Assembly (NCBI GenBank): GCA_031409655.1
Contig: JANNXQ010000025.1
Coordinates: forward strand, 1-48,620
Source of the DNA: Chthoniobacteraceae bacterium
GTDB lineage: Bacteria; Verrucomicrobiota; Verrucomicrobiia; Chthoniobacterales; Chthoniobacteraceae
Length of the DNA: 48,620 bases
Reading direction: 5' to 3'
The notes beneath the pieces are model-generated. The model worked only from the letters and a program-made list of their open reading frames with translations, did no database searches and had not been told where the DNA came from. Made by a program: the position numbers and the translations under genes. Position 1 is the first letter of the stretch, and every line of letters begins with the position of its first letter. Positions 21,009-43,913 of this stretch are shown here, in pieces.

Positions 21009-21279
21009 CGGGACGTTGAATGACGGCCCGGCGGCCGCGGTGCGGGCGGCCGCTCCGACGGGGATTGAGCTTGCCATGAGCTTCGGTTTCCAAGCATCCT
21101 CCGAGTCCCCCGCGCGGCATTCGTTATTGTTGCGCCGCCAGTCCCATGAACTCTCATCTCTCCGCGCCACTTCGGCGGGACGGATATCCTCCGGGGGGAT
21201 CCTTTCTTTCGGGCTCGAGCCTCCGCACCGAGCCGTCCACCCACTGCAGCCGACTCGCTGCACCAGCCCACCCAGATCC

Positions 21280-24200
21280 ATGAAAGCATCTCCCACATCC
21301 CTCCAGCGCAGCCGCGTTTTTCGTTTCGTCGCACCGCTCGCCGCCGTTGCCGTGGCCTTCGCGGCACCGGTCGAGACTCGCGCGCAGGAAGTCTTCTTCC
21401 CGACCCATCTCCTCCAGCCGCCGGAAGGCATGTATGTGAATACGGCACAGCCTTTCGCCCAGTATTTCAATGGCACCATCGTCAAGGACGTGAGCGTCCG
21501 GAGTTTTTCGGATAGCGTGGCGCCGCCGGCTCTCGGGGCGGCGGCTCAACTCCGCACCTTCGGCGCTGAGCTGCGGATGCTGATCTCTTCCGATGGCGGC
21601 GCGACGTTCCAACCCGCGACCACGCCAGCCACGGTCACGACGAGGACTCTGGCCGTGGCGGTTCCGGCCGGCGCTCCGGCGCGTTACGAGACGGAAATGC
21701 TCCAGCTCGACATCTCGGGCGGGACGCTGCCGGCAGGCGTGATGGTGCGTGAAAGTCCCACGCGCGCATCCACGGGCCGGACGAACATCCGGACGGTCAG
21801 TGGTGGTTTCACGATCGCGAGTTTCTTCGACGTCTTCACCGACCTGACTTTTGACGGCGGGCAAACGTGGAGCCCGGCACAAGCGGCGGGGCGCCTCGAG
21901 TTGCGCGGCGATCCGACGAAGACCGCGCCGATCAAGACCTCAACGCGGCTGCTGCCGCCGCCGAACGATCTCTATGTGAGCCCGGCGCAGTTCCATGTGC
22001 TCTTCGCGCAGGGCATCGTCATTCGCGATGTGCGGCATCGGTTCTTCACCCAATCGCTGCCGCCGCCGCCGCAGGGCGGGCCGCCGCAGGTGCATACTTT
22101 CAATTCGCAGGTCGATATGGAGGTGTCGTTTGATGGCGGGGTTGCCTTCCAGCAGATGCGCGCGCCGGCGGCGGTGACGGTCCAGGTCTCACCGCGGGCG
22201 AACTGGGATGGCACGGACGTTTACGACACGGAAATGCTGGCGCTGAATCTCCAGGGTGGCGACCTGCCTCCGACGGTGATGCTGCGCGAGAGCCCGACCA
22301 GGCAATCGCTCGGCGGCACGGCGATCGCCCAGCCGCCGATCGGCGATCCGGATTTCGATCTGCTGCGGATCGGCAGCTTCTTCGACATCTTCACCGAGAT
22401 CAGTCTCGATGGCGGGCTAAACTGGTCGCCGGCGACCAGCGCTGCACACGTGGTGCTCGAGTGCAACGCGCCGGAAGTAACCGAGACCTCGCCGAATCTG
22501 CCGCCGCCGGGCGACGAATATCTGAGCCCAGCGGATTATCATGCGGCCTTCGCGGCGGGTATCATCATCAAGGACATCAAGCACGATCGCTTCACGCAAT
22601 CGCTGCCGCCGCCGCCTCCGGGCGGCTCGCAGATTCACAATTTCCAGTCGCACGTGCAGTTCCGGATTTCGCAGGATGGCGGAGTCACGTTCCAGCCGGG
22701 GCGCGCACCGGCGCAGTGTGTGGCCCAGGTGTCCAGCAGCGTGGACGCTGGCGGCACGCGTTTCTTCGACACGGAGATGCTGGATCTGAGCATCTCCGGC
22801 GGCACGCTGCCGGCCGGGGTGATGCTGCGCGAGAGTCCGAGCAAGGCGTCGCTTGGCCGCACCAGCATCCGGCAAACGACCACCGGCGGTTTTGAGGTCG
22901 CGAGCTTCTTCGACATCTTCGTCGAGTTGACCGTGGACGGCGGCGTGACGTGGCAGCCCACGACGAGCGGTCCGACGGAAGTGGTGCTCCAGAAGCCGCC
23001 GGTCCCGCACTTCTTCACCTCGAATGCGCTGCCGCCGCAGCCGGGCGTCTATGTGAGCCCGGCGGATTTTCACGCGGCGTATGCGAATGGGATCATCCTT
23101 CGGAATGTGAGCCACAAGCGCTTCACGCAGAGTCTGCCGCCGCCGCCGCCGGGCAGCACGCAGGTGCATAACTTCGGCTCGACCGTGGAGATGGATGTCT
23201 CCTCGGATGGCGGGCTCACCTTCCAGCACGTCTCGGCGCCGGCGAGCGTGACCGCGCGCGTGACCGGGTTTGGGAATAACCCGGACAACCTTTGTTTCTA
23301 CGACACCGAAATGCTGGCCCTGAACATCTCGGGCGGGAGTCTGCCGACCGGCGTCATGGTGCGCGAAAGCCCCAGCAAGGCATCGCTCGGCCGGACGACC
23401 ATCGAGCCCGTGGGCGGTGGCTACATGATCGACAGCTTCTTCGACATCTTCACCGAGGTCAGCCTCGACGGTGGCCAGAATTGGTCGCCCGCTGCGGAGG
23501 CGGCGCATGTGGAATTGACGGTCGATCCGACGCTCATCACGCCGATCAAGGCACCGACGAACTTGTTGCCGCCGCCGAACGATCTCTACATCTCGCCGGC
23601 GCTCTTCCACGTCCTCTTTGCCCAAGGCATCGTCATCCGCGACGTGAAGCACCGCTTCTTCACCGGATCGCTGCCCCCGCCTCCGCTCGGCCAGAGCCAG
23701 GTCCACACCTTCGGCTCTCAGGTCGATATGGAGGTCTCCATCGACGGTGGGCAAACCTTCCGACCCACCCGCGCTCCGGCAGCCGTGACCGTGCGTCTGG
23801 CGCACACGCGCGACGAAGGCACCACGCAAATCTTCGACACGGAGATGCTGCAACTCGACATCCAGGGCGGCGACCTGCCACTCGGGGTGATGCTGCGCGA
23901 AAGCCCGACGCGGCGTTCGCTGGGCGGCACCGCGATGGCCCAGGCGGCGATCGGCGATCCTGATTTCGACTTGCTGCGCATCGGCAGCTTCTTCGACATC
24001 TTCACGGAGATCAGCCTCGATGGCGGCCAAAACTGGTCACCGGCGGTCAGCGCTCCGGCTCACGTCGAGTTGATTTGCAACGCGCCGGAAGTCGTCGAGC
24101 CGACGCCGAACCTGCCGCCGATCGGCGACCAGTATGTGGACCGGGAGGATTTCCATGCGGCCTTTGCCTCGGGCATCATCCTCAAAGACGTCTCGTATGA

Positions 24201-26598
24201 TCGCTTCACGCAATCCATGCCGCCGCCGCCGCCGGGAGCCTCGCAGATCCACTCGTTCCAGTTGCGGGCGCAGTTCCGGATTTCGCAGGATGGCGGAGTC
24301 AAGTTCAATCCGGGATCGGCGCCGGCTTTTGCCGTGGTCCAGGTGACGAGCAGCACGGATGCGGGCAGCACGCGCTTCTTTGACACGGAGATGCTGTCCT
24401 TGGAAATCCAAGGCGGCTCGCTGCCGCTCGGAGTGATGGTGCGCGAAAGCCCATCCAAGGCCTCGCTCGGCCGCACCAGCATCCGCATGGTCACCGACTC
24501 TTCGGGAGTGATCTGGGATTACATCAGCAGCTTCTTCGACATCTTCGTCGAAATGAGCGTGAACGGTGGTGCCACCTGGGATCCATCGGTGAGCGGCCCG
24601 GCGGAAGTCGTCCTCGCCAAGTCGCCGAAGCCGCACTTCTTCACCACGAATGTGCTGCCGCCGGGGAATGGCGTTTACGTCAGCCCGGCGGATTTCCACG
24701 CCGCCTACGCAAACGGCATCATCATCAAAAATGTGAGCCACAATCGGTTCACCCAGGGCCTGCCGCCGCCGCCTCCGGGTGGCACGCAGGTGCATAACTT
24801 CGGCTCGACGGTGCATATGGATGTCTCGATCGACGGCGGCGCGACCTTCCAGCACGTCTCGGCTCCAGCCAGCGTGAGCGCGCGCGTGACCAGCTTTGGC
24901 AATAACCCGGACAACCTGTGTTTTTACGACACCGAAATGCTGGCGCTGAACATTTCCGGCGGCGGTCTGCCGCCCAACGTCATGGTGCGCGAAAGTCCCA
25001 CCAAAGCCTCGCTCGGACGAACCAGCATCGAGCCCGTGGGCGGTGGCTACATGATCGACAGCTTCTTCGACATCTTCACCGAGATCAGCCTAGACGGCGG
25101 CCAGAGTTGGTCGCCGTCCGCCGAGCCGGGCCACGTCGAACTTGCAGTCGATCCCACCTTGATCCCACCAGTCCCGGCACCGACCACGCTGCTGCCGCCG
25201 CCGAACGATTTCTACGTTTCGCCGGCGCTCTTCTACGCGTTGTTCGCCCAAGGCATCGTCATCCGCGACGTGAAGCATCACTTCTTCACCGCCTCGCTCC
25301 CCGCGCCGCCGCTCGGCCAGAGCAGGGTCCACACCTGCGATGCCGTGATGGACATGGAAATTTCCATCGACGGCGGGCAGACCTTCCGCCCCTCGCGCGC
25401 CCCGACGGCGATGACCATGCGGGTGACCCACACCCGCGACGAAGGCACCACCCAGATCTTCGACACCGAGATGCTGCAACTCGACGTCCATGGCGGCGAC
25501 CTGCCACTTGGAGTGATGCTGCGCGAAAGCCCGACGCGGAAATCGCAAGGCGGCACCGCGATCACCGCGAATACCGACGGCACCCAGCGCATCGGCAGCT
25601 TCTTCGACATCTTCACCGAGCTGAGCCTGGACGGCGGCCAGAACTGGACGCCCGCCAGCGGACCGTCCCACATCGAGCTGCAATGCAACGCGCCCGAGCT
25701 GGTCGAGACCTCGCCAAACCTCCCCCCGCTGCTCGATGAATACGTCAGCGTGGAGGAATTCGATGGCGCCTTCGCCGTGGGAGTCATCGTCCAGGACGTG
25801 AAGTACGACCGCTTCACGCAATCGACTCCGCCGCCTCCTCCGGGTGGATCGCAGATTCATCAGTTTGAATCGCGGGTGCGGTTCATGATTTCCCAAAACA
25901 ACGGCCAGACGTTCACTCCGGGCCTGGCGTTTGCCGATGTCATCGTGCGTGTGACCAGTTCGCAGGACCAGGAAACCACGCGCTACTTCGACACCGAGAT
26001 GCTCTCCTTGAACATCCACGGCGGCTCCCTGCCGACCACCGTGATGCTGCGCGAGAGTCCGAGCAAAGCCTCGCTCGGCCGCACCAGCGTGCGCACCGTG
26101 GCGTCCGGCTACCGCACCAGCAGCTTCTTCGACATCTTCACCGAGATCAGCGTCGACGGCGGCCAGAACTGGTCGCCTTCCGTCAGCGGCCCGGTGGAAA
26201 TGAATCTGCGCGACCCCGACACCGACGACGACGGACTCGAGGACGCCTGGGAACTCGCCTTCTTCGGCAATCTCACAAAAGGCCCGAACGAAGACACCGA
26301 CGGCGATGGCGCGACCAACCTCGCCGAATTGCTCGCCGGGACCGTTCCGACCAACCCGGCAAGCGTGCTGCGTGCGCGAGTTTCCCAGAACGGCAACAAT
26401 CTGCTTCTCGGATTCCCGAGCGTGCTGGGTCACAAGTACTCGATCGAGTGCAAGAGGGATCTCGGATCACCCATCGAACAGTGGGTGCCAGTAGTCACCA
26501 ACATCGAAGGCGACGGCACCGTCGCCGCGATCATCCTCTTGGACGTGTTGCTCTTCCCGAGGCGCTTCTATCGCGTGGTGGTGCAACCGTCACCGTAA
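21280..26598 (+). CDS. Large secreted repeat protein (1772 aa): nine ~180-aa Asp-box-containing domains as (ABC)x3, DxDxDG motifs, RFYR C-terminal domain
   Basis: Signal peptide ends ETRA-Q. Nine (D/E)TEML...RESP...SFFD(I/V)F...GGxxW units; period 1626 bp between 23005 and 24631. DTDDDGLEDAWE, DTDGDGATNLAE, RRFYRVVV. Confidence 0.9.
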   Translation: MKASPTSLQRSRVFRFVAPLAAVAVAFAAPVETRAQEVFFPTHLLQPPEGMYVNTAQPFAQYFNGTIVKDVSVRSFSDSVAPPALGAAAQLRTFGAELRMLISSDGGATFQPATTPATVTTRTLAVAVPAGAPARYETEMLQLDISGGTLPAGVMVRESPTRASTGRTNIRTVSGGFTIASFFDVFTDLTFDGGQTWSPAQAAGRLELRGDPTKTAPIKTSTRLLPPPNDLYVSPAQFHVLFAQGIVIRDVRHRFFTQSLPPPPQGGPPQVHTFNSQVDMEVSFDGGVAFQQMRAPAAVTVQVSPRANWDGTDVYDTEMLALNLQGGDLPPTVMLRESPTRQSLGGTAIAQPPIGDPDFDLLRIGSFFDIFTEISLDGGLNWSPATSAAHVVLECNAPEVTETSPNLPPPGDEYLSPADYHAAFAAGIIIKDIKHDRFTQSLPPPPPGGSQIHNFQSHVQFRISQDGGVTFQPGRAPAQCVAQVSSSVDAGGTRFFDTEMLDLSISGGTLPAGVMLRESPSKASLGRTSIRQTTTGGFEVASFFDIFVELTVDGGVTWQPTTSGPTEVVLQKPPVPHFFTSNALPPQPGVYVSPADFHAAYANGIILRNVSHKRFTQSLPPPPPGSTQVHNFGSTVEMDVSSDGGLTFQHVSAPASVTARVTGFGNNPDNLCFYDTEMLALNISGGSLPTGVMVRESPSKASLGRTTIEPVGGGYMIDSFFDIFTEVSLDGGQNWSPAAEAAHVELTVDPTLITPIKAPTNLLPPPNDLYISPALFHVLFAQGIVIRDVKHRFFTGSLPPPPLGQSQVHTFGSQVDMEVSIDGGQTFRPTRAPAAVTVRLAHTRDEGTTQIFDTEMLQLDIQGGDLPLGVMLRESPTRRSLGGTAMAQAAIGDPDFDLLRIGSFFDIFTEISLDGGQNWSPAVSAPAHVELICNAPEVVEPTPNLPPIGDQYVDREDFHAAFASGIILKDVSYDRFTQSMPPPPPGASQIHSFQLRAQFRISQDGGVKFNPGSAPAFAVVQVTSSTDAGSTRFFDTEMLSLEIQGGSLPLGVMVRESPSKASLGRTSIRMVTDSSGVIWDYISSFFDIFVEMSVNGGATWDPSVSGPAEVVLAKSPKPHFFTTNVLPPGNGVYVSPADFHAAYANGIIIKNVSHNRFTQGLPPPPPGGTQVHNFGSTVHMDVSIDGGATFQHVSAPASVSARVTSFGNNPDNLCFYDTEMLALNISGGGLPPNVMVRESPTKASLGRTSIEPVGGGYMIDSFFDIFTEISLDGGQSWSPSAEPGHVELAVDPTLIPPVPAPTTLLPPPNDFYVSPALFYALFAQGIVIRDVKHHFFTASLPAPPLGQSRVHTCDAVMDMEISIDGGQTFRPSRAPTAMTMRVTHTRDEGTTQIFDTEMLQLDVHGGDLPLGVMLRESPTRKSQGGTAITANTDGTQRIGSFFDIFTELSLDGGQNWTPASGPSHIELQCNAPELVETSPNLPPLLDEYVSVEEFDGAFAVGVIVQDVKYDRFTQSTPPPPPGGSQIHQFESRVRFMISQNNGQTFTPGLAFADVIVRVTSSQDQETTRYFDTEMLSLNIHGGSLPTTVMLRESPSKASLGRTSVRTVASGYRTSSFFDIFTEISVDGGQNWSPSVSGPVEMNLRDPDTDDDGLEDAWELAFFGNLTKGPNEDTDGDGATNLAELLAGTVPTNPASVLRARVSQNGNNLLLGFPSVLGHKYSIECKRDLGSPIEQWVPVVTNIEGDGTVAAIILLDVLLFPRRFYRVVVQPSP

Positions 26599-31196: not shown

Positions 31197-31850
31197 CTAA
31201 GCTGCCGCGTGGTGAAAGAGCACCGCCCGCCGCTGGAGATCACTGCCATCCTTGAGGTGCAGTTTTTCCTTAATGTGCTGCCGGTGCGTTTCCACCGTCT
31301 TCACGCTGACCTTCAACTCATCGGCGACCGCCCGGGTTCCGAGCCCCCGGCCAATCGCCCGGAAGATTTGCAGTTCCCGATTCGAGAGTGCGGCCTCGGC
31401 GCTACCGTGCAATTCCACCGAACCGCAGGCCAGCCGATCGAGCAGGAGATGGGCGACCCGCGGGGCCGCGTGGCGCTGCCCGGCCAGGGCACAATCGATG
31501 GCCACGAGGAGTTCCGCCGCGGGATCGAGCCGTGTCACGTATCCTTGCGCGCCACCTTGGAAGGCGCGCTGGACCGAAAGTGCATCCTCGAGCGAGGTAA
31601 AGGCGATCACCCGGATGCCCGGCGCCCAGCGGGGAAATTCCTTGAGCAGACCGAACCCGTCGCCAAGCGCGAGATCGAGCACTGCGAGATTTGGTCGATG
31701 CCGCGCGCAGAGTTCCCGCGCCGTCGGCGATGAGTCCGCCTCGCCACAGATGCGGAGACGACCGTGACCATTCAGCAAATGCACCAGGCCGAGCCGCGCG
31801 ACGGGATGGGCATCAACAATCAACACACTGATTTTCCGATTATTGGACAT
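31197..31850 (-). CDS. NarL/LuxR-family response regulator
   Basis: REC (VLIVDAHP, LAVLDLAL) plus LuxR HTH (LSNRELQIF...VSVKTVETHRQHIKEKL). Confidence 0.92.
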   Translation of the reverse strand: MSNNRKISVLIVDAHPVARLGLVHLLNGHGRLRICGEADSSPTARELCARHRPNLAVLDLALGDGFGLLKEFPRWAPGIRVIAFTSLEDALSVQRAFQGGAQGYVTRLDPAAELLVAIDCALAGQRHAAPRVAHLLLDRLACGSVELHGSAEAALSNRELQIFRAIGRGLGTRAVADELKVSVKTVETHRQHIKEKLHLKDGSDLQRRAVLFHHAAA

Positions 31851-32087: not shown

Positions 32088-34445
32088 ATGCCCACTCCAA
32101 AATTCAACGTCCAACCCGACATCCCGGACCTCCGGGATCGTCTCTACAATCCGACCCTCCGCGGACTCGAGCCCACCTTCAATGCCCAGCCTTTCGCCGA
32201 TCCGGCCTTCTGCGCGCGGATCAAGAATCAGGGCCAGACTTCTGCCTGCACCGGCTTTGCTCTCGCGGCGATGATCGAAGGCTTGGTCTATCGCGCCTGG
32301 AGCCGCACCGCGCAGCAGAGTCCCGCGCCGGACGTCATCTCGCCGTATATGCTGTACTACTTTGCCCGCCGCTACGATGAGCTGCCCGGCACCGCCGCCG
32401 GCGAAGGCTCCACGGCGCGCGGCGCGATGAAAGCGTGGCACAAGCACGGGGCCTGCAAGCTCGACCTGTGGCGGGGCATTGAGACGAGCATCGCGCGCGA
32501 CGGCGCGGAATGGATTGCTGACGCCTTTCATACCCCGCTCGGCGCTTACTTCCGTGTCGATCACACCAGCATTCCGGACCTTCACGCCGCACTCAATGAA
32601 ACGGGCTTCGTCTATGTGACCGCGGAGGTACACAGCGGCTGGATGGCGCTGGGTGAAGATGGCGTCATCCCCTACGACGGGTCGCAGACTCCCGAGGGCG
32701 GCCATGCATTCCTTTTCGTCGGGTACGATGAAGACGGCTTCTGGCTGCAAAACTCGTGGCACGACGATTGGGGTCGCGGCGGCTTCGCACGGCTGAGCTA
32801 TCACGACTGGAGTGCGAACAGCATGGATGCCTGGGTCGGGCAACTCGGCGTCCACATCAGCCGCAAGGCCGAAAGCCTCGCCACCGGACTGCGCTTTACC
32901 CCACCAGCCTCACGCGCCGACGCTGCCTCCGCGGCGCCTGCACCCAATCTCTCCTCGAATGCCAGCCTCAGCGCCCAGCAGATCAATCCCTATATCCTCA
33001 ATGTCGGGAATAACGGACGGCTCTCCGATAGCGGTCAGTTTGCCACGCGGCCCGAGGACCTGCACGACCTGCTCGCCTTCTATCTGCCAAATGCGGTGAA
33101 GCAGTGGGGCTTGGATGCGAACCAGCCCATCGACGTCGCCATCTACGCCCACGGCGGGCTTGTCGATGAAAAGTCCGCCGCTGAGACCGCGCGCTGGTGG
33201 GTGCCGGCGCTCTTTAATCACCGCATCTTCCCCATCTTCCTGATGTGGGAGACGGGCTTCTGGGACGTTGTCAAAAATGTCATCGCCGATGCTTTCCAGC
33301 GACAGTCCGCGGGTGGGGCGGCGGGCGCATTCTGGGATAAGATCGGCAACGCCATCCAGAACTGGTGGAACGAGCGTCTGGAGAACCTCGCCAGCAAGCC
33401 CGGCACACTCCAGTGGGACAAGATGAAGGAAAACGGTGAGCGCGCCACGACCAACAAAAAGGACGGCGGCCTTGCCTTGCTCCACCGCGAGTTACTCAAG
33501 TCCGAACACGAAGCCATCCGCAAACGGCTGCGTTTTCACCTGATCGGTCACAGCGCTGGCTCGATCGTCCACTCGCATCTCGGAGCGGCGCTCGTCGAGG
33601 CCGGCTTAAAGCTCGATGGAATCTACTTCCTCGCGCCGGCCTGCCGCGTTGAGTTATTCAAGGCAAAACTGTTGCCCCTCTTCAAGTCCGGCAAGATCGC
33701 CAGTTATACCCAGTTTCACATGACCGACGAGGTCGAGCGCCGTGATAATTGCGGGACGATCTATCGCCAGTCGCTGCTTTACCTCGTCTCAAATGCCTTC
33801 GAACATCAACGCGCCACGCCCATTCTCGGTATGGAGAAGTTCGCCAAGGCCGTGATTGACGCGAAGCCAGCGAGTGCCTCCGTCTGGGACTTCATCGCCG
33901 CGCCCACCAGTCCTGTGGACCCCACGCGCCGGAGTAATTCCACCAGCCACGGTGGGTTCGACAATGATGCGGATACGCGCATGGCCGTCCTCACCCGCAT
34001 CGTCCGGCGGCAGAGCGGTGGTGGTGGTGGGGCGGGCGCGGGTCAGATGATGAAGAAGAAGCCGACCACTCCAAAAGCCACCGTCTCGGCCAAGGGGGCG
34101 AAGGCGCCCGCGAAAACCAAAGCGAAAGCACCCCCAAAAGTGACTCGAGTGGCCAAGGCCGGCGCTCCGCAGGCCAGGACGCGCCCGGAGGTCTTGGCCG
34201 TCGTGCTGAATCGGCTTCACGCCTACAACATCCATCGGAACGCCTCGGCTGGCACGGACATCAAGTGGGATTTCCGCGACACGGAAAGAGAGGACAAGCA
34301 AACCACGCCGCGCGGTCAACGCGTGAACTCCTTCCTCACGGACTTGCGGCTCGGCATCGTCCATCCCGTCAATATCGGGCCGTCCGACCTGATCCGCGGC
34401 GACTTCGATACGCCCAACGACCTCACCGACTTCATCATGCCATGA
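32088..34445 (+). CDS. Papain-like C1 cysteine peptidase fused to an alpha/beta-hydrolase domain, a Lys/Ala-rich linker and a small C-terminal domain
   Basis: C1 motifs PDLRD, NQGQTSACTGFA, GGHAF, QNSW..WG..GF; hydrolase motifs YAHGGL, LIGHSAGS, SHGGFDND. No signal peptide. Confidence 0.88.
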   Translation: MPTPKFNVQPDIPDLRDRLYNPTLRGLEPTFNAQPFADPAFCARIKNQGQTSACTGFALAAMIEGLVYRAWSRTAQQSPAPDVISPYMLYYFARRYDELPGTAAGEGSTARGAMKAWHKHGACKLDLWRGIETSIARDGAEWIADAFHTPLGAYFRVDHTSIPDLHAALNETGFVYVTAEVHSGWMALGEDGVIPYDGSQTPEGGHAFLFVGYDEDGFWLQNSWHDDWGRGGFARLSYHDWSANSMDAWVGQLGVHISRKAESLATGLRFTPPASRADAASAAPAPNLSSNASLSAQQINPYILNVGNNGRLSDSGQFATRPEDLHDLLAFYLPNAVKQWGLDANQPIDVAIYAHGGLVDEKSAAETARWWVPALFNHRIFPIFLMWETGFWDVVKNVIADAFQRQSAGGAAGAFWDKIGNAIQNWWNERLENLASKPGTLQWDKMKENGERATTNKKDGGLALLHRELLKSEHEAIRKRLRFHLIGHSAGSIVHSHLGAALVEAGLKLDGIYFLAPACRVELFKAKLLPLFKSGKIASYTQFHMTDEVERRDNCGTIYRQSLLYLVSNAFEHQRATPILGMEKFAKAVIDAKPASASVWDFIAAPTSPVDPTRRSNSTSHGGFDNDADTRMAVLTRIVRRQSGGGGGAGAGQMMKKKPTTPKATVSAKGAKAPAKTKAKAPPKVTRVAKAGAPQARTRPEVLAVVLNRLHAYNIHRNASAGTDIKWDFRDTEREDKQTTPRGQRVNSFLTDLRLGIVHPVNIGPSDLIRGDFDTPNDLTDFIMP

Positions 34446-35737
34446 GAAATTTTCGCGCCCGCGCCTTCTGCCTCGCCCTGCTCGTGTGGTTCATGCAGGC
34501 GGGCAGCCTTCTTGCGGAACAAGTTTGGATCTCCGCCGACTGGAGTGTGCAGGACCAGGGCAAGGAAAAGCGGTTTGTCCGCCAGGTCGTGCGCATTAGC
34601 TTGCGCAAGGGACCACCTCCAGCCGGCATCGTCCCCAAGCCCGTCATCCTTGGAGACAGCCCGGCGGTGCTCGATGCCCGGTACTGGAAACTCATCGCGG
34701 AGAAAGGTGACAGGAAGGAGGAGATACCGGTCACGGTCGTGCTCCCTACCCTGAGTCCCGAACCGCGGGTGAAATACATCATGCTCGCGCCCGGCAAAGC
34801 TCTTGATCCAGGAAAGAGTTACACCCTCTCGCTGGTCCGAGCGCCCGGCCTGCCGTACCCATTGCGGCTCGCGCCGGGTTTCACCCTTGCCAACCCCGAC
34901 GCTCTGACGAGTGTCGGTCTGCCCTCAGACGAACTCAAACGGGACAAGAACTACGTGGATGGTAACAAGGCCTTTGAGAACAGTTTTGTTCTCAACACCG
35001 GTGAAGGCAATGGCGTCAGTGTACGTGCTGCGTGGGGGCGCAGCGACTTCAAGTACGGCTCCCATTCGAGCTTCCTCGCGACCCTGAACGCCGACGGCAC
35101 CTACAAGCCCAAGGACCAAGGCAACTACCTCAACAGCATCGTCGGGGAAATCGATGCCTCGTGGAATTTCACCAAAGAGTTTCCGGCTTTGCGGGCCAAT
35201 GCCGTCGAGATGCTGGCGCTGACCCATCGCATCGAGGCGGATCGGGACTTTGAGGTCGTCAATGGCACTCTCGGCGTCACTTCGTGGACTTCGTTTGGAG
35301 CGGATTGGCTGGATCGCTTCTCGCGCGCGCTTTGCGTCATCGGCACGCCGCCATCACGCACGCCGAGCCCCATTCTCGCGCTCGCCTACGACTACGTTTT
35401 TAAAATCCACGAAAACCTCGACACCGGTGAGCGCATCCGCGAGGTCGGTGACCATCGCTTGCGCGTGCAATTCTATTGGTCGGTCAAGGTGGCCCACGAA
35501 TTTCAGTTGCCGCTCATCGAAGGAAAATACGATGCCGACGTCGTTCTCAACCTCAGCGGGATTCAGGACTTCAAGACGGGCGACTTTCTCCCCGACGCGC
35601 GGGTCACGCTCGAATTGGCTCCCGCCTCCGATGACAAGAGCAAGCCATCGTTTACCCTCAGCTACGTTAACGGAAAGGTGACCCCGCGCTTTGAGAACTA
35701 CGACGCCATTCTCGCCGGCTTAAAACTTCCCTTCTGA
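34442..35737 (+). CDS. Exported hypothetical protein, probable outer-membrane beta-barrel with an N-terminal Ig-like domain
   Basis: ATGA overlap with the upstream stop; signal peptide ends SLLA-E; LAPGKALDPGKSYTLSL resembles an Ig-like strand pattern; alternating amphipathic strands; ends LAGLKLPF with terminal Phe. Confidence 0.7.
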   Translation: MRNFRARAFCLALLVWFMQAGSLLAEQVWISADWSVQDQGKEKRFVRQVVRISLRKGPPPAGIVPKPVILGDSPAVLDARYWKLIAEKGDRKEEIPVTVVLPTLSPEPRVKYIMLAPGKALDPGKSYTLSLVRAPGLPYPLRLAPGFTLANPDALTSVGLPSDELKRDKNYVDGNKAFENSFVLNTGEGNGVSVRAAWGRSDFKYGSHSSFLATLNADGTYKPKDQGNYLNSIVGEIDASWNFTKEFPALRANAVEMLALTHRIEADRDFEVVNGTLGVTSWTSFGADWLDRFSRALCVIGTPPSRTPSPILALAYDYVFKIHENLDTGERIREVGDHRLRVQFYWSVKVAHEFQLPLIEGKYDADVVLNLSGIQDFKTGDFLPDARVTLELAPASDDKSKPSFTLSYVNGKVTPRFENYDAILAGLKLPF

Positions 35738-35781
35738 TAGGCAATGCCAGATTCCGCAGCGAAACCCGACTAATTCACAAC

Positions 35782-37362
35782 GTGAAAATCCGCGACGCCA
35801 TCGAGTGGTTTCAGACCGCTTTTGACAAAGAACTCCAGACCGCGGTGAGCGGCACCCCTTTTGACATCGATCTCGTTTCCGCCATTGCCTATCAGGAGAC
35901 GGGTTACATCTGGCAACTTCTCGTCGAGAAAGGACTCAAGAAGGACGACGTGCTGCGCCTCTGTGTGGGCGATACGATCGACGCGAGCGGAGGGCGCGGC
36001 GCCTTTCCGAGGACCAAGGCGGATTTGGTGGCCCACCCGAGAGGTGGCGAGATGTTCAAAATCGCCCGTCGCAGTCTGGATGAGATGGCAGCTTTCATTC
36101 CCGGATACGCCGGGGCGGTCGCGAAGCCGAATAAGTTCTGCCACGGGTTTGGCATCTTTCAGTACGACCTGCAGTTCTTTAAGGATGACGCTGACTTCTT
36201 CCTTGAGGAGCGGTGGGGCTCGGCGGCGGAATGCTTTGAGCGCTTCATCGCGGAACTCTTTGAGGCGAAGCGGCGCCAAGGTTGGCGCGGGAAACAAACG
36301 CTGACCGATCTGGACAAAGTCCTCGTAGCCATCGCTTACAATCGAGGATCCGCCAACGTTGCGAAAGGACTCAAACAAGGGCACAAGAATGACGAAGGGA
36401 AGTATTACGGAGAGTTGGTGTCGGCTTACTACGACATTGCCAGGAGCATCCCTTTCGATCCGGGGATGGCGATCGGCGGCGGGCCGGGGATGAATCTCGC
36501 GCGGAAGGCGGCCTTTGTGGCGCTGCCGGTCGGTATCGCGGCGCCTGCTTATCCGCGGCATCTTATCCTGCGTGACTCGAAAGACACCGTTTCGGTGAGG
36601 CGCATTCAGAAGCGCCTTCAGGATCTCGGCTACACCCAGCCCGGCCGGACCGGCGGCACTGCACCGCTCAAGGTGGACGGACTTTTCGGTGAGGATACTG
36701 AAGATGCGGTGGAGTTGTTCCAAGTCCGCCACACCGATGCACACGGTGCTCCGCTGACGGTCGATGGCGAAGTGGGGCCTGAGACTTGGGCGGCACTTTT
36801 CGGCGCGGTAACGCTGCACATTTCCAAGAGCAAAAGCGTGGATAGCCCGATCCTGGACGCGGTGCTCGATGTGGCTTCGGAGGAAGTGGGCGTGCTCGAA
36901 GAACCGGCTGGGTCGAACCGGGGCCAAAGAGTCCAGGAGTTTCAGCGCGCGGTCGGGATTTCGCCCGGCGATCCGTGGTGCGTGGCTTTCGTCTATTGGT
37001 GTTTCGCGCAGGCGGCCGCGAAAGTGAACCTCACGAACCCAATGGAGGACGAGTGTCGCACCGGCAGCGTGCTCGACCTTTGGAATCGCGCTCGCTGCGC
37101 GAAAAACGTGGAGACCATCGGTAGTGATCAGGCGCTCGACGATCCGAGTATCGTGAAGCCCGGCACCGTCTTCATCATCTCCACGGGCGGTGGCTACGGC
37201 CACACGGGTCTGGTTTCCAGGGTCGTGGGCAACCGGTTGGAAACCATCGAAGGCAATACTAATGATGGCGGATCGCGGGAAGGCATCGGCGTCTTCCGGC
37301 GCAGTGGCCGGACGATTGTCAGTATCAACCGTGGCTTCATCGACTTCAGCGGCGCAGTCTGA
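35782..37362 (+). CDS. Tri-domain peptidoglycan hydrolase: lysozyme-like, PG-binding and CHAP domains
   Basis: AIAYQETG, HGFGIFQYD, AYNRG (lysozyme fold); IQKRLQDLGY, VDGLFGEDTEDAVELFQ, VDGEVGPETWAAL (PG_binding_1-like); PWCVAFV, GHTGLV, TIEGNT (CHAP). Confidence 0.9.
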   Translation: MKIRDAIEWFQTAFDKELQTAVSGTPFDIDLVSAIAYQETGYIWQLLVEKGLKKDDVLRLCVGDTIDASGGRGAFPRTKADLVAHPRGGEMFKIARRSLDEMAAFIPGYAGAVAKPNKFCHGFGIFQYDLQFFKDDADFFLEERWGSAAECFERFIAELFEAKRRQGWRGKQTLTDLDKVLVAIAYNRGSANVAKGLKQGHKNDEGKYYGELVSAYYDIARSIPFDPGMAIGGGPGMNLARKAAFVALPVGIAAPAYPRHLILRDSKDTVSVRRIQKRLQDLGYTQPGRTGGTAPLKVDGLFGEDTEDAVELFQVRHTDAHGAPLTVDGEVGPETWAALFGAVTLHISKSKSVDSPILDAVLDVASEEVGVLEEPAGSNRGQRVQEFQRAVGISPGDPWCVAFVYWCFAQAAAKVNLTNPMEDECRTGSVLDLWNRARCAKNVETIGSDQALDDPSIVKPGTVFIISTGGGYGHTGLVSRVVGNRLETIEGNTNDGGSREGIGVFRRSGRTIVSINRGFIDFSGAV

Positions 37363-37395
37363 GCCGCAATCGAGATCAGCGAAACGCCGGCAACT

Positions 37396-38346
37396 ATGAA
37401 ACTCTCGGCACCCATCGAATTCGCCCGCCGCTGCGATGCCTCGGGTGGAATCGCCGTTAGCGCCGATCAGTGGGTTGGCGCGAATGACGAAGATAACGTC
37501 TTGCGCCTTTATTCTACGGCAGGGGGCGCGCCGGTGAATGACCGGCTGATCGACCTCGATCAGTTCCTCGAGATTGCGGGTGAGCCGGATCAGCGGGAAG
37601 CCGATCTTGAAAGCGCGACGACGTTCGGTGACTTGGTCTTTTGGATTGGCTCGCATTCCCAGAGCCGGAAAGGCCGCGGCCGCCTTAACCGACATCGGCT
37701 CTTCGCCACGAAGACGGGTGGCGCTGGCGGAGTGGCCACGCGGATCGAGGGCTACGGCAAACCCTGCAAGACCTTGCGCAGCGCACTGGTGAAAGAGCCG
37801 CGGCTCAAAAACTACGCCTTGGAAGACGCGATCCTGCTGCCGCCAAAAGATTCAGGCGGGTTTAACATCGAGTCGCTTTGCGCCGACCTCGCCTGCCAAA
37901 GACTCTGGCTGGGCTTGCGCAATCCAATCCCAACCGCTGGCGCGCTGCTCGTCCCTCTGGAGAATCCGCGCAAAGTGGTCGAGGACGCGGCCCCTCCGCT
38001 CCTTGGCGATCCTTTGCTGCTGGATCTCGGAGGGCTGGGCTTCCGCGACATGGTCGTCATCGGGGAAGACTATCTCATCCTTGCCGGCGATTTTCGCGAC
38101 CGCAATGCGGAGGGCGCGCAACCGTCGGCGCTCTTTGCCTGGCCCGGACCGGGCGGCGCGCTCCGGCGGTTGAACGTGGAATTCGGTGACCTGAACCCCG
38201 AGGCGCTCATCGCCTTTCCCGGAGAGAAAGTTCTGATCGTCAGCGACGATGGCGCCCGGCTCACCGGCAGACAGAAATGCAAGGACGTAGCGGAGGAAGA
38301 GCGGTCATTCAGGGCGGTGTGGCTCGAGTATGGGAAGTCTCCTTGA
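37396..38346 (+). CDS. DUF3616-like beta-propeller protein
   Basis: CDASG, ANDEDN, DLESAT, WIGSHS, GFNIESL, LGLRNP, LDLGGLGFRDM, NPEAL, VSDDG. No signal peptide. Confidence 0.8.
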   Translation: MKLSAPIEFARRCDASGGIAVSADQWVGANDEDNVLRLYSTAGGAPVNDRLIDLDQFLEIAGEPDQREADLESATTFGDLVFWIGSHSQSRKGRGRLNRHRLFATKTGGAGGVATRIEGYGKPCKTLRSALVKEPRLKNYALEDAILLPPKDSGGFNIESLCADLACQRLWLGLRNPIPTAGALLVPLENPRKVVEDAAPPLLGDPLLLDLGGLGFRDMVVIGEDYLILAGDFRDRNAEGAQPSALFAWPGPGGALRRLNVEFGDLNPEALIAFPGEKVLIVSDDGARLTGRQKCKDVAEEERSFRAVWLEYGKSP

Positions 38347-38421
38347 AGCCCGTGAATCCCGCAGATTTCCCGGCACCGCCGAAGCTGCAAATTTCCACCC
38401 ACACCAGCTCCCATCCACACC

Positions 38422-40005
38422 ATGAATAGCAAAGTCATCATCACCAATCTCGCCGCCCTGAAAAAGAAGTACGGCGTCGCTGGCTTGAAGAGAATCAAAG
38501 CTGCCATCAAGGCGCTGATCGCAGCAGATAAGGCGCGCGGATTTCAGACGACCCTCACCGCGCTCGACAGCGCCGAGGCGATGAAAAAGGTGAAAGGCAA
38601 GAAGGTCGCCGATGCCAAAGACCCTGCGCAGAACAAAGCCGCCATCGACGCGATCTACCGCGCGCTCGTGCCTGACTACGTGATGCTCCTCGGTGCGCTC
38701 GACGTCATTCCGCATCAGGATCTGATCAATCCTGTCTTCAGTCCCGGCAACGACGACGATGAGTACGCCTACGGCGATCTGCCCTACGCCTGCGAAGCGC
38801 CTTACAGCCCGAAGGTGAAAGATTTCGTCGGACCCACGCGGGTCGTCGGGCGGCTCCCCGATCTCACCGGGGGCACCGATCCGGCCTATCTTCTCGGGTT
38901 GCTCGCCACCGCGACGGGATGGATTTCGCGCCCCGCTGCCGATTACTCCGGGGACTTTGCGATCAGCGCCGAAGTTTGGAAAAAGTCCACGGCGCTCAGT
39001 GTGCAGCGGCTTTTCGGCGCGAGCGGCACCGTGCAACTTGCCCCGCCCGGCGGACCCGCATGGGGAGCTTCGTTGCTCGCGAAACGCCCCCATTTCATCA
39101 ACTGCCACGGGGCCTCGGCCGACCCGCAATTCTATGGGCAGAAAGGCAACTCCTATCCGGTGTCACATCAGGCCGCGCGACTCGCTGGCAAAATCGCCGA
39201 GGGCACGGTCGTTGCCGTCGAATGCTGCTACGGCGCGGAACTCTACGATCCGCTCCTGGCTGGCGGCCAGGCCGGCATCTGCAGCACTTACCTCGCAGAA
39301 AAGGCCTACGGCTATTTTGGCAGCAGTACCATTGCCTACGGGCCGGCGGTCGGGAATGGGGCCGCGGATTTGATCTGCCAGTACTTCCTCCGCCGGGTCA
39401 TCGCCGGCTCATCGATCGGACGGGCGGCCCTCGAGGCGCGGCTCGAATTTGCCGGCGGTGCCGCGGAACTCGATCCCGTGGACTTGAAGACGCTCGCGCA
39501 GTTCAGCCTGCTCGGCGATCCTTCCATCCATCCCGTGGCTGCGTCCACGCCGCACGCCGTCATGGCCGCGCCGGGGACGAAAGGCCCGGCTGCAAAAGGA
39601 CTCGCGGCCGCGATCGCAAATGCGGCTGCGGCGCGCACGGATCGTCGCCGCCAATTGCTCTCGCGCGGGCTGCGCATTGGCGCATCACAACCGTGCGCAG
39701 TGAAGCTCGCAAAGGCGAAACCCGCCGGGCCGCTGATGGCTGCACTGAAGAAGCTGGCCGCGCAGTTGGACATTCCTGACCCGGACTTTCTCGCCTTTAA
39801 GATCGAGACGCCTGCCGCGCCCAAAGGCACCAAGCCTCTCTCATTAAAAGCCGGACCGAAGGCCATGATGGCGGCTCCCGATGGCTTTCACGTCGTTTCC
39901 GGTTCGCGAAACGTCTCCGCGTTAAAGACGCCGCAAATCGTCGCGATGGTGGCGAAGGAAGTGGGCGGAAAAATTGTGTCGTATCGCGAGATGCACGGCC
40001 GATAA
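38422..40005 (+). CDS. C25 (gingipain-like, clan CD) cysteine peptidase
   Basis: YVMLLG...IP, GDLPYA, VGRLP, INCHG (His), ECCYG (Cys), YFGSS, FSLLGDP. No signal peptide. Confidence 0.85.
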   Translation: MNSKVIITNLAALKKKYGVAGLKRIKAAIKALIAADKARGFQTTLTALDSAEAMKKVKGKKVADAKDPAQNKAAIDAIYRALVPDYVMLLGALDVIPHQDLINPVFSPGNDDDEYAYGDLPYACEAPYSPKVKDFVGPTRVVGRLPDLTGGTDPAYLLGLLATATGWISRPAADYSGDFAISAEVWKKSTALSVQRLFGASGTVQLAPPGGPAWGASLLAKRPHFINCHGASADPQFYGQKGNSYPVSHQAARLAGKIAEGTVVAVECCYGAELYDPLLAGGQAGICSTYLAEKAYGYFGSSTIAYGPAVGNGAADLICQYFLRRVIAGSSIGRAALEARLEFAGGAAELDPVDLKTLAQFSLLGDPSIHPVAASTPHAVMAAPGTKGPAAKGLAAAIANAAAARTDRRRQLLSRGLRIGASQPCAVKLAKAKPAGPLMAALKKLAAQLDIPDPDFLAFKIETPAAPKGTKPLSLKAGPKAMMAAPDGFHVVSGSRNVSALKTPQIVAMVAKEVGGKIVSYREMHGR

Positions 40006-40025
40006 GTGCTGCTACGCTGCGGGCT

Positions 40026-40271
40026 GTGAAGCCACAGCAACTCATCGGACGCGTGGTCAAGGAGCCCTTCGCCAAGGGTTCGAAAAGCGAACACGACGCC
40101 GTTCTGCTGCTCGTGGACGGCCAACGCTACGTGCTGCGCCGGCAGGGCGGCCATGCCTTCTGTGATCCCGCACTCGACGCGCTTGTCGGGAAGACGATCT
40201 GCGGCACGGGCCTGCTCAACGGCTACACTTTCCTCCTGAGCGAATGGTCTGAGCCGGGCGGGAACCGCTGA
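40026..40271 (+). CDS. Small beta-rich hypothetical protein (81 aa), last gene of the protease cluster
   Basis: GTG start 20 nt after the C25 stop; GSKSEHDAVLL...YVLRRQGG...LVGK looks like a compact beta-barrel. Confidence 0.7.
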   Translation: MKPQQLIGRVVKEPFAKGSKSEHDAVLLLVDGQRYVLRRQGGHAFCDPALDALVGKTICGTGLLNGYTFLLSEWSEPGGNR

Positions 40272-43178: not shown

Positions 43179-43872
43179 CCGCCGTCTGTGTGGGAATTGC
43201 TTGTCAGCGAGCACCGGTTTCCCTCTCTTCCCGCGCACCCACCCATGGCATCCAACTACACTGAAGCCAGCATCAAGACCCTCAGTTCGCTGGAGCACAT
43301 CCGCCTCCGCCCCGGCATGTATATCGGGCGGCTGGGCAATGGCGCCCACGCGGAGGACGGCATCTACGTGCTGCTCAAGGAAACGATCGATAACTCGATC
43401 GACGAATTCATGATGGGGCAGGGGAAGCGAATCGAGGTGGAGATCACCGATCGCAGCGTGAAGGTGCGCGACTACGGACGTGGCATCCCGCTGGGAAAAC
43501 TCGTGGATTGCGTCTCGATCATCAACACGGGCGCGAAGTACGACAGCGAGACTTTCCAAAAAGCCGTCGGGCTCAATGGCGTCGGGCAGAAGGCGGTGAA
43601 TGCGCTCTCGCTGAACTACCGCGCGCAGGCCATCCGCGAGGGCGAGAGCAAAGTCGTTGACTTTGAAAAGGGGAAGCTCACGTCGCAGTCGCGCGTCACG
43701 AAGACCGAGGAGCGCAATGGCACGCTCGTGGAGTTCACGCCGGATGAGGCGCTCTTCGGCAAGGACTTCAAGTTCCGCACCGAGTTCGTCGAGGACATGC
43801 TGTGGAAGTACGCGTTCCTCAACCGCGGCCTCACACTCACGCTCAATGCCCAGCGCTTTAAGTCAGAGCACG
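43179..43872 (+). repeat. Direct repeat copy 1 (parE upstream region plus 5' coding region); copy 2 at about 47460-48153
   Basis: Shared GTCTGTGTGGGAATTGCTTGTCAGCG and TCTCTTCCCGCGCACC leader. Manual comparison gives about 44 differences in ~627 coding nt. Confidence 0.9.
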
Positions 43873-43913
43873 AGCGGAAGGAACTCGCCGGAGTCCATGC
43901 GGAGGGAGAGTGA
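43245..43913 (+). pseudogene. parE: Truncated, internally deleted copy of topoisomerase IV subunit B
   Basis: ~209 codons align with 47526-48153, then jump to EHERKE (48604-48620) and stop 12 codons after the junction. Confidence 0.88.

Follow-up and report, generated by a model that had tools for sequence, protein, structure and literature searches.

A gingipain-fold protease and its small OB-fold partner, a tentative protease-inhibitor pair, within a patchwork of hydrolase genes in a Chthoniobacteraceae bacterium

The stretch of DNA considered here (the window: 48,620 nucleotides of contig JANNXQ010000025.1, assembly GCA_031409655.1, from a Chthoniobacteraceae bacterium) carries at 32088-40271 a block of six open reading frames (ORFs) on one strand, designated A to F, which a preliminary description had read as a single system coupling proteolysis to lysis or conflict. 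Our analysis shows instead that the last two genes of the block, coding for a protease of predicted gingipain fold (E) and for a small protein of predicted oligonucleotide/oligosaccharide-binding (OB) fold (F), constitute a fixed unit across phyla, sometimes fused, and that genes A-D come and go. The block as a whole is almost certainly a patchwork of separately mobile hydrolase genes and not one system, and for the complete explanation, a patchwork cassette in which E and F form a protease plus cognate inhibitor pair, we estimate a probability of about 0.5. The genes concerned, with their positions in the window, are the following.

32088-34445, plus strand: A, C1 protease and alpha/beta-hydrolase domains, followed by a linker rich in Lys and Ala and by a short C-terminal portion (785 amino acids; Pfam, conserved motifs)
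34442-35737, plus strand: B, signal-peptide protein, probable outer-membrane beta-barrel (431 amino acids; weak Atlas leads)
35782-37362, plus strand: C, lysozyme/lytic-transglycosylase-like, peptidoglycan-binding and CHAP domains (526 amino acids; Pfam, conserved motifs)
37396-38346, plus strand: D, DUF3616 protein (316 amino acids; Pfam, E 1e-16)
38422-40005, plus strand: E, predicted gingipain-fold (C25, clan CD) cysteine protease (527 amino acids; model, structure comparison)
40026-40271, plus strand: F, OB-fold protein, predicted cognate inhibitor of E (81 amino acids; model, co-occurrence with E)
31197-31847, minus strand: response regulator with receiver and LuxR/GerE helix-turn-helix domains, divergent from A-F (Pfam Response_reg and GerE)

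The E-F pair across bacteria

A scan of species genomes for E returned 70 loci from many phyla, the flanks of which were searched by tblastn up to 10 kb on each side. F lies downstream of E in 64 of these loci; the remainder comprise one locus with a cut F, four in which the contig ends at E and one (L068) that has room for F and lacks it. Counted over the loci with room, F follows E in 65 of 66. The reverse test points the same way, since all eight genomic F matches outside the alignment (in G014, G235, G456 as a second copy, G474, G530, G638, G758 and G798) have E directly upstream. Searches with the F profile covered 61, 401, 301, 401 and 5 genomes, and in the large ones just 13-18 candidates were scored per genome, which makes the resulting prevalence a lower bound. 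On plasmids F follows E in all five loci opened, out of ten plasmid matches, and the gap between the two genes is at most 70 nucleotides in 53 of 55 cases. Natural fusions of E and F occur twice (P0055 and P0103) among the best 150 F-profile matches, and in one of them F replaces the C-terminal domain of E and a Glu the catalytic His.

Both families are widespread. At an E-value of 0.001, 2451 E-like proteins were found among 8000 candidates, the F family comprises 803 clusters at 50% identity, and the hosts of the pair belong to the Verrucomicrobiota, Acidobacteriota, Planctomycetota, Pseudomonadota, Nitrospirota and other phyla. The closest relative of E (68% identical) resides in a Chthoniobacteraceae genome whose TypA is 95% identical to that of the host. 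Distances among E proteins correlate with those among their F partners (Spearman 0.81, 54 pairs, 0 of 999 permutations), a correlation that is not taken here as co-evolution because kin share history. No description of the pair was found in the literature covered, which left aside most subscription journals and supplements, among them the architecture tables of PMC7159879.

The commonest third gene is a GDSL hydrolase, adjacent in 17 of the 70 E loci and, in 15 of these 17, beginning with a segment that holds 24-37 Lys, Arg or Ala among its first 60 residues. Genes for ferritin-like/LodA-like, radical SAM, tyrosinase, Dyp or haem peroxidase proteins lie near E-F in L172, L173, L175, L176, L194, L198 and L191, and these neighbours make up a second recurring company of the pair besides hydrolases. 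Directly upstream of E-F in an environmental genome is a large gene (L059:3875-9754) that carries the Pfam domains SpvB and TcdB-middle.

E as a signal-less protease of the gingipain fold

Peptidase family C25 is known chiefly from the secreted gingipains. On the evidence of its model (mean predicted local distance difference test, pLDDT, 88), E is a C25-type protease by fold and His-Cys dyad. Structure comparison aligns it with RgpB (VIA Z 31.4, root-mean-square deviation (rmsd) 3.9, 331 aligned residues) and with Kgp (Z 27.7; Foldseek E 4e-12), both of Porphyromonas gingivalis, the next family reaching Z 15.7, and the two-subdomain, caspase-like fold of these gingipains is shared over residues 1-404 of E. 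The catalytic part spans residues 1-375 and is followed by a low-confidence linker (376-390) and by a C-terminal helix plus small sheet (389-527), the helix bearing conserved R405, R408 and R409. The His-Gly and Cys-Cys motifs of the gingipains are likewise shared: C268/C269 are kept in 57 of 57 sequences and H229 in 56 of 57, Y306 and D316 are invariant, and among the relatives listed CHG occurs in 120/120 and ECC[YF]G in 119/120. Sequence similarity is faint by comparison. E is only 8-17% identical to Kgp and RgpB, the Peptidase_C25 family (PF01364) matches it at 17.2 bits (E 0.003) against a cut-off of 23, and a profile of 57 E sequences finds no sequence match in the PDB; the Pfam match is precomputed on most of the listed relatives, some of which NCBI names 'C25 family cysteine peptidase'. 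An NCBIfam search gave nothing at cut-off.

E differs from gingipains proper in its C-terminal domain, its environmental hosts and its fixed small partner gene. Its alignment to the mature catalytic domain of gingipains sets in at residue 1-2 already, so that E appears to have neither a signal peptide nor an N-terminal prodomain. Signal peptides were judged by a crude hydrophobicity window only, in which B scores 2.73, E 2.24 and the other proteins of the block at most 1.3; the segment of E responsible for the 2.24 is the first strand of its model, and just 2 of 67 E relatives exceed 2.2. E belongs to a large signal-less branch of C25. Its invariant Y306 and D316 suggest, by their order and spacing, a parallel with Tyr512 and Asp516 of Kgp, whose active site also includes His444 and Cys476-Cys477 (available part of PMC13266019). 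Such a parallel would give E an acidic S1 pocket, and Lys- or Arg-specific proteolysis is predicted from D316 on this basis.

F and the mechanism of the pair

The model of F (pLDDT 82) shows a five-stranded OB fold plus a helix, and the protein has no Pfam family. K20 and S21, in a loop between the strands at 4-15 and 23-30, are invariant in 63 sequences, and a G[ST][KR]S loop recurs in 134 of the best 150 F-profile matches. The top structural row for F is potempin A (Z 6.7, rmsd 2.0, 63 aligned residues), a Z below 8 that may reflect just a common arrangement, and potempin D is listed at Z 5.1. According to the available part of PMC9890683, potempins are co-transcribed inhibitors of the KLIKK peptidases of Tannerella forsythia, potempin A inhibiting through its b2-b3 and b4-b5 loops. 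F shares with them the small five-stranded OB fold and a gene adjoining that of a protease, whereas potempins are outer-membrane lipoproteins encoded upstream of secreted serine or metallo-peptidases (same source) and F is encoded downstream of a cysteine protease and is signal-less, the hydrophobicity window finding a signal peptide or a hydrophobic or amphipathic segment in 0 of 64 F proteins. By analogy, E-F would work like the potempin-peptidase pairs without being a member of them, with F predicted to inhibit its cognate protease 1:1.

Co-folding lends weak support to binding between E and F. The pair scores 0.49 (runs of 0.49, 0.55 and 0.05), in a range, at or below 0.60, that holds just 18 of 157 solved complexes and both of the mismatches reaching the mark, which is attained overall by 116/157 solved complexes and 2/215 mismatches. 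The best of three controls scores 0.00, agreement between the runs covers at least 94% of contacts, and the partner pLDDT is at least 79. Taken with the conservation of the pair, a physical action of E and F together is quite probable; that this action consists in inhibition of E by F is more tentative, and we give it slightly less than even odds. Presumably a cytoplasmic product, and lacking the N-terminal prodomain by which gingipains are kept in check, E would need a brake. F would provide it by laying the exposed loop with the invariant Lys20 into the acidic S1 pocket around D316, a proposal modelled on the potempins, which wedge loops into co-transcribed proteases.

Several points weigh against a protease-inhibitor pair. 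The C-terminal domain of E could itself be the brake, the equivalence of D316 and Asp516 derives from spacing and not from superposition, one of the three co-folding runs scored just 0.05, and the co-folding gave no interface. The conserved loop of F is b1-b2, not one of the two that potempin A uses. SSB and PriB come within 1 Z unit of potempin A, which counts as a tie, and the top Foldseek rows for F are nucleic-acid-binding OB folds, none of them at E 0.001 or below. F also keeps R38-R39, which fits nucleic-acid binding. The loci are partly kin (L048, L052 and L055 belong to one genome), and their counts are not independent; the fusions are single-member clusters, P0055 being the one with Glu at the catalytic His. 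F-like domains are moreover found without E, in tandem or in a cluster whose long member has poly(A) polymerase/CCA and HD domains, company that likewise suits nucleic-acid binding.

Part of this evidence would suit a different role, in which F is a nucleic-acid sensor or activator that binds single-stranded DNA (ssDNA) or RNA, for instance of an invading phage, and switches E on, much as a clan CD protease is coupled to a signal, be it nucleic acid or nucleotide, in Craspase or SAVED-CHAT, to which the pair may be likened. The structure lists for F are full of OB folds, those of SSB, PriB and RPA, K20 is conserved along with R38 and R39, an F-like domain is fused in the poly(A) polymerase/HD protein family, and CHAT proteases are the next structural relatives of E. 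At a few loci, furthermore, defence genes are close by: L061 has TIR and TIR-NACHT, G456 has OLD-TOPRIM and UvrD some 3 kb away from its second copy, L173 has AbiEi/AbiEii and L200 has SIR2. The median net charge of F is only +2, however (range -4 to +6), no effector gene is constant beside E-F, the GDSL hydrolase included, and just 5 of 108 immediate neighbours of E-F match PADLOC at 1e-10, all with generic domains (subtilase twice, MotB/OmpA-like, helicase and TIR). The neighbour genes were called by a heuristic, with no control set, and these observations neither support nor exclude a role in defence. A sensor function for F seems to us unlikely, though not negligible.

Two side observations concern these genes. 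The AAA/OLD-TOPRIM gene and UvrD helicase about 3 kb from a second E-F copy, itself located after a trypsin gene, occupy L190:12927-16567 and are presumably a Gabija-like pair. Among the F-like proteins without E, P0124, P0155, P0139 and P0036 continue from the OB domain into a common small C-terminal domain, and the long member of the cluster with poly(A) polymerase/CCA and HD domains is found on 31 contigs, of up to 515,884 bases, which could represent a large virus or plasmid.

F, or the neighbouring GDSL and alpha/beta-hydrolases, might alternatively be substrates of E, cleavage freeing a latent effector. That proteases pair with effectors, among them small partners and zymogens of hydrolases, is established for protease-activated defence modules, which include the MBL and alpha/beta-hydrolase types along with Pepco and EACC1 (available part of PMC12642450), and E-F resembles these in setting a protease beside a small or hydrolase partner. 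The invariant exposed Lys of F, the Lys/Arg/Ala-rich starts of the adjacent GDSL hydrolases and the Lys/Ala-rich linker of A would all provide sites for a Lys-specific enzyme. Nonetheless, the proteases of the described modules are trypsin, caspase or S8 enzymes fused to sensor domains (as far as that part of the source goes), whereas E has a gingipain fold, no sensor and an OB-fold partner; F has no hydrophobic or amphipathic segment, and GDSL partners are lacking at most loci. We regard E-F as an unlikely protease-substrate pair. It is also conceivable, at rather long odds, that E-F is a switch in which the Lys loop plugs a cytoplasmic, Lys-specific E until invading ssDNA or RNA, sensed by a basic face of F, frees the protease to cut the Lys-rich tails of latent hydrolases nearby (GDSL, alpha/beta-hydrolase or cell-wall hydrolase), killing the cell. 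A protease held by its cognate inhibitor is the reading of E-F retained in what follows.

The six genes as a set

The make-up of the block is largely as first described. Co-directionality, the intervals between genes (-4, 44, 33, 75 and 20 nucleotides) and the catalytic motifs are borne out by the coordinates, by motif conservation of at least 95% in the A and C families and by the dyad of E, and the divergent LuxR-type regulator is there. The C1 protease and the serine hydrolase named in the preliminary description are two domains of one protein, A, and its heading, which speaks of six genes, passes over F, the best conserved partner of all.

In A, Peptidase_C1 matches residues 44-238 (Pfam, E 2e-8), and Q48, C54, H206, N222, G487-H488-S489-A490-G491 and H621 are at least 95% conserved in 72 family sequences. 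Members of the family typically have about 640 amino acids and are encoded by a solitary gene; others are fused to muramidase, amidase or caspase domains, some carrying an amidase in place of the C1 domain plus an added caspase, and in L021 and L168 an A-type hydrolase domain is fused to a caspase. C has PG_binding_1 at 271-339 and CHAP at 396-492 (Pfam), preceded by an N-terminal domain in which Q38-E39-T40-G41, GIFQ and AYN-G each reach 95% conservation or more across 73 sequences. We take E39, GIFQ and AYN-G to resemble lysozyme motifs; the domain has no Pfam match, and a PDB sequence search returned designed helical repeats only. By the hydrophobicity window neither A nor C has a signal peptide. 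B has no Pfam match and three other relatives (72-91% identical); weak Atlas leads (0.83-0.90) to outer-membrane barrel clusters and a C-terminal Phe, which we take to be the beta-signal of outer-membrane proteins, point to a probable outer-membrane beta-barrel that is a rare, lineage-specific passenger. For D the evidence is its DUF3616 match. Two further DUF3616-like domains are present in the host genome, within proteins of more than 1400 amino acids (G000 C196:685-5061, that is L170, and C81, that is L171).

The idea that all six genes form one system, a cascade of proteases that turns on the cell-wall hydrolase and leads either to suicide or to export by way of the barrel, finds its main encouragement in the tight gaps and common strand of the block and in the partial sets found elsewhere. 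D, C and A are consecutive on a Rhizobium gallicum plasmid, downstream of a trypsin-NucA gene; R. ruizarguesonis TP15 and Sinorhizobium medicae have D and C paired on plasmids, and the three plasmid arrangements may share one origin. In G1154 a C-like gene directly precedes a frameshifted A, and in R. ruizarguesonis TA1 E-F has genes for DUF3616, lysozyme, an L,D-transpeptidase, a chitosanase and a caspase as neighbours, the pair and the DUF3616, lysozyme and caspase genes falling within 12 kb. The plasmid loci found share families with A, C, D and E and a make-up of lysozyme, protease and DUF3616. The set of six, on the other hand, is not conserved beyond close relatives, where only subsets recur. 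Around the 70 E loci B and C are never found, D once (6 kb off) and A once (hydrolase domain only). A scan for A gave 92 loci (the best 80 of 298 metagenome loci plus 12 genome loci) and none of them contains B-F, in flanks of at least 3 kb downstream for 41 of the 80 metagenome loci, many of which are kin sharing one chromosomal context, and of about 1.5 kb only for the 12 genome loci; the nearest relatives of A (62-65%) also sit among unrelated genes. In a set of 50 genomes that carry E-F, an A-like match of any kind turned up in 8 and the N-terminal domain of C in 2, mostly at other places in the genome. The host's relatives, 60 in number, include one with E and F and two with partial C matches; E, F and C are absent from three genomes of the same genus (74-97% complete), and B is at none of the other loci.

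A conserved six-gene unit is therefore rejected on these counts, and the proposed cascade is not supported: its parts are seldom together, and E-F stands mostly among unrelated genes without a muralytic enzyme. B is nearly unique and was found at no other locus, which makes export through it unlikely as a general rule, and a cytoplasmic wall hydrolase, separated from its substrate by the inner membrane, would need no proteolytic brake. Against PADLOC (library dated 2023) the six proteins gave no match to a model at a meaningful E-value, just one fragment at E 0.04, and no holin or secretion genes were noticed on reading the ORF list of 26-46 kb. A phage origin was considered and rejected, with no E or C relative in viral contigs (by exact-pattern scans, which have low sensitivity) and no F match in 50,697 phage records. 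In short, we see no evidence of a proteolytic cascade, of export by way of the barrel or of phage defence, and we consider a unified six-gene system highly improbable. The hydrolase theme of the preliminary description does stand at the level of families: A, C and D keep company with cell-wall hydrolases, as seen in the muramidase, amidase and caspase fusions of the A family and in the D-C-A row of R. gallicum.

A variable slot for hydrolase genes

Since subsets of the genes recur in shifting order and orthologous regulators face other content, the block is best described as a variable slot in one of its states, filled from a stock of hydrolases that for the most part are signal-less. The ortholog of the divergent regulator in G454 (62%) faces genes for an amidase, an alpha/beta-hydrolase, a membrane protein, E and F, and that in G003 (58%) faces a haem peroxidase gene. 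In G454 the 16 kb downstream of typA contain none of A-F, and the contigs of G001-G003 stop less than 2 kb from typA or short of it. The regulator likely controls the cassette slot, and it would switch on the whole of the present cassette, proteases, cell-wall hydrolase and esterase alike. After lysis of some of the producers, neighbouring or dead cells would then have their walls, proteins and lipids acted on by the signal-less enzymes. Such a digestive role, with a regulated battery of enzymes released by the lysis of some cells, is possible, if on the doubtful side. Three verrucomicrobial genomes share a membrane protein without Pfam match, encoded either first in such hydrolase cassettes or within them (L003:8579-9595, L021:1930-3033 and L215:6601-7563), accompanied in some loci by a small lipoprotein; it is a candidate release route for the hydrolases.

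The cassette belongs to a loosely described kind of hydrolase cluster. Clusters around Hedgehog (M15A) genes in Mesorhizobium and Bradyrhizobium, lying outside the core genome, bring together lysozyme, amidase, proteases and DUF3616 in a make-up like that of A-F, and a function in feeding or scavenging has been suggested for them (available part of PMC8052667). The present block differs in lacking Hedgehog, trypsin and endonuclease genes, and neither the E-F pair nor the C1-hydrolase fusion is named in that part of the source. System 3 of Kaur et al. (2020) consists of multi-peptidase operons with a peptidase and NucA, with lysozyme and papain-like peptidoglycan-peptidase effectors, read as conflict systems (available part of PMC7159879). 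A trypsin-NucA gene precedes D-C-A in R. gallicum; the block itself has no trypsin/NucA core genes by Pfam, and the text on System 3, so far as available, contains no match for gingipain or DUF3616. Metacaspases fused to amidase, peptidoglycan-binding or GDSL domains (available part of PMC3501461) share with the A- and E-type loci the company of a clan CD protease with amidase or GDSL lipase, but they are C14 caspases, not C25, and that part of the source shows no OB-fold partner.

The surrounding window

Read depth is uniform over the block and its left flank (run X1, possibly the source of this DNA), and on this ground there is no pointer to misassembly; the sequencing runs containing this DNA are freshwater sediment metagenomes from one study. 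The content of guanine and cytosine (GC) of the genes (0.59-0.64) is near that of the genome (0.634) and hence gives no sign of recent transfer. A scan for promoters and terminators stayed at chance level (2 against 1.6 and 9 against 10.0). Elsewhere in the window, a 1860-codon ORF on the plus strand (21016-26598) has many long internal repeats, with YDTEML and FFDIFTE motifs recurring, and a hydrophobic stretch near a later start; its product is probably a secreted repeat protein. On the minus strand a 2367-codon ORF (4954-12057) runs across a strong AT skew (to -0.5). At 43188-43913 on the plus strand, a 241-codon ORF with an abrupt end adjoins genes for a glycosyltransferase and a TPR protein on the opposite strand; we assume that it resembles the N-terminal ATPase part alone of a gyrase B/ParE subunit.

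Implications

We know of no natural bacterial OB-fold inhibitor of the gingipain fold described before. Should F prove to be an inhibitor, it would offer an 80-residue scaffold against clan CD proteases, with possible use against gingipains; should it be a nucleic-acid sensor, the pair would be a minimal immune switch, and if E-F were a switch released by nucleic acid, F would be the first such bacterial inhibitor and the pair a widespread two-gene switch. More generally, the signal-less hydrolase clusters of rhizobia are found in the Verrucomicrobiota as well, where their content is swapped beside one regulator. The E-F pair is small, is present in cultured rhizobia and is directly testable.

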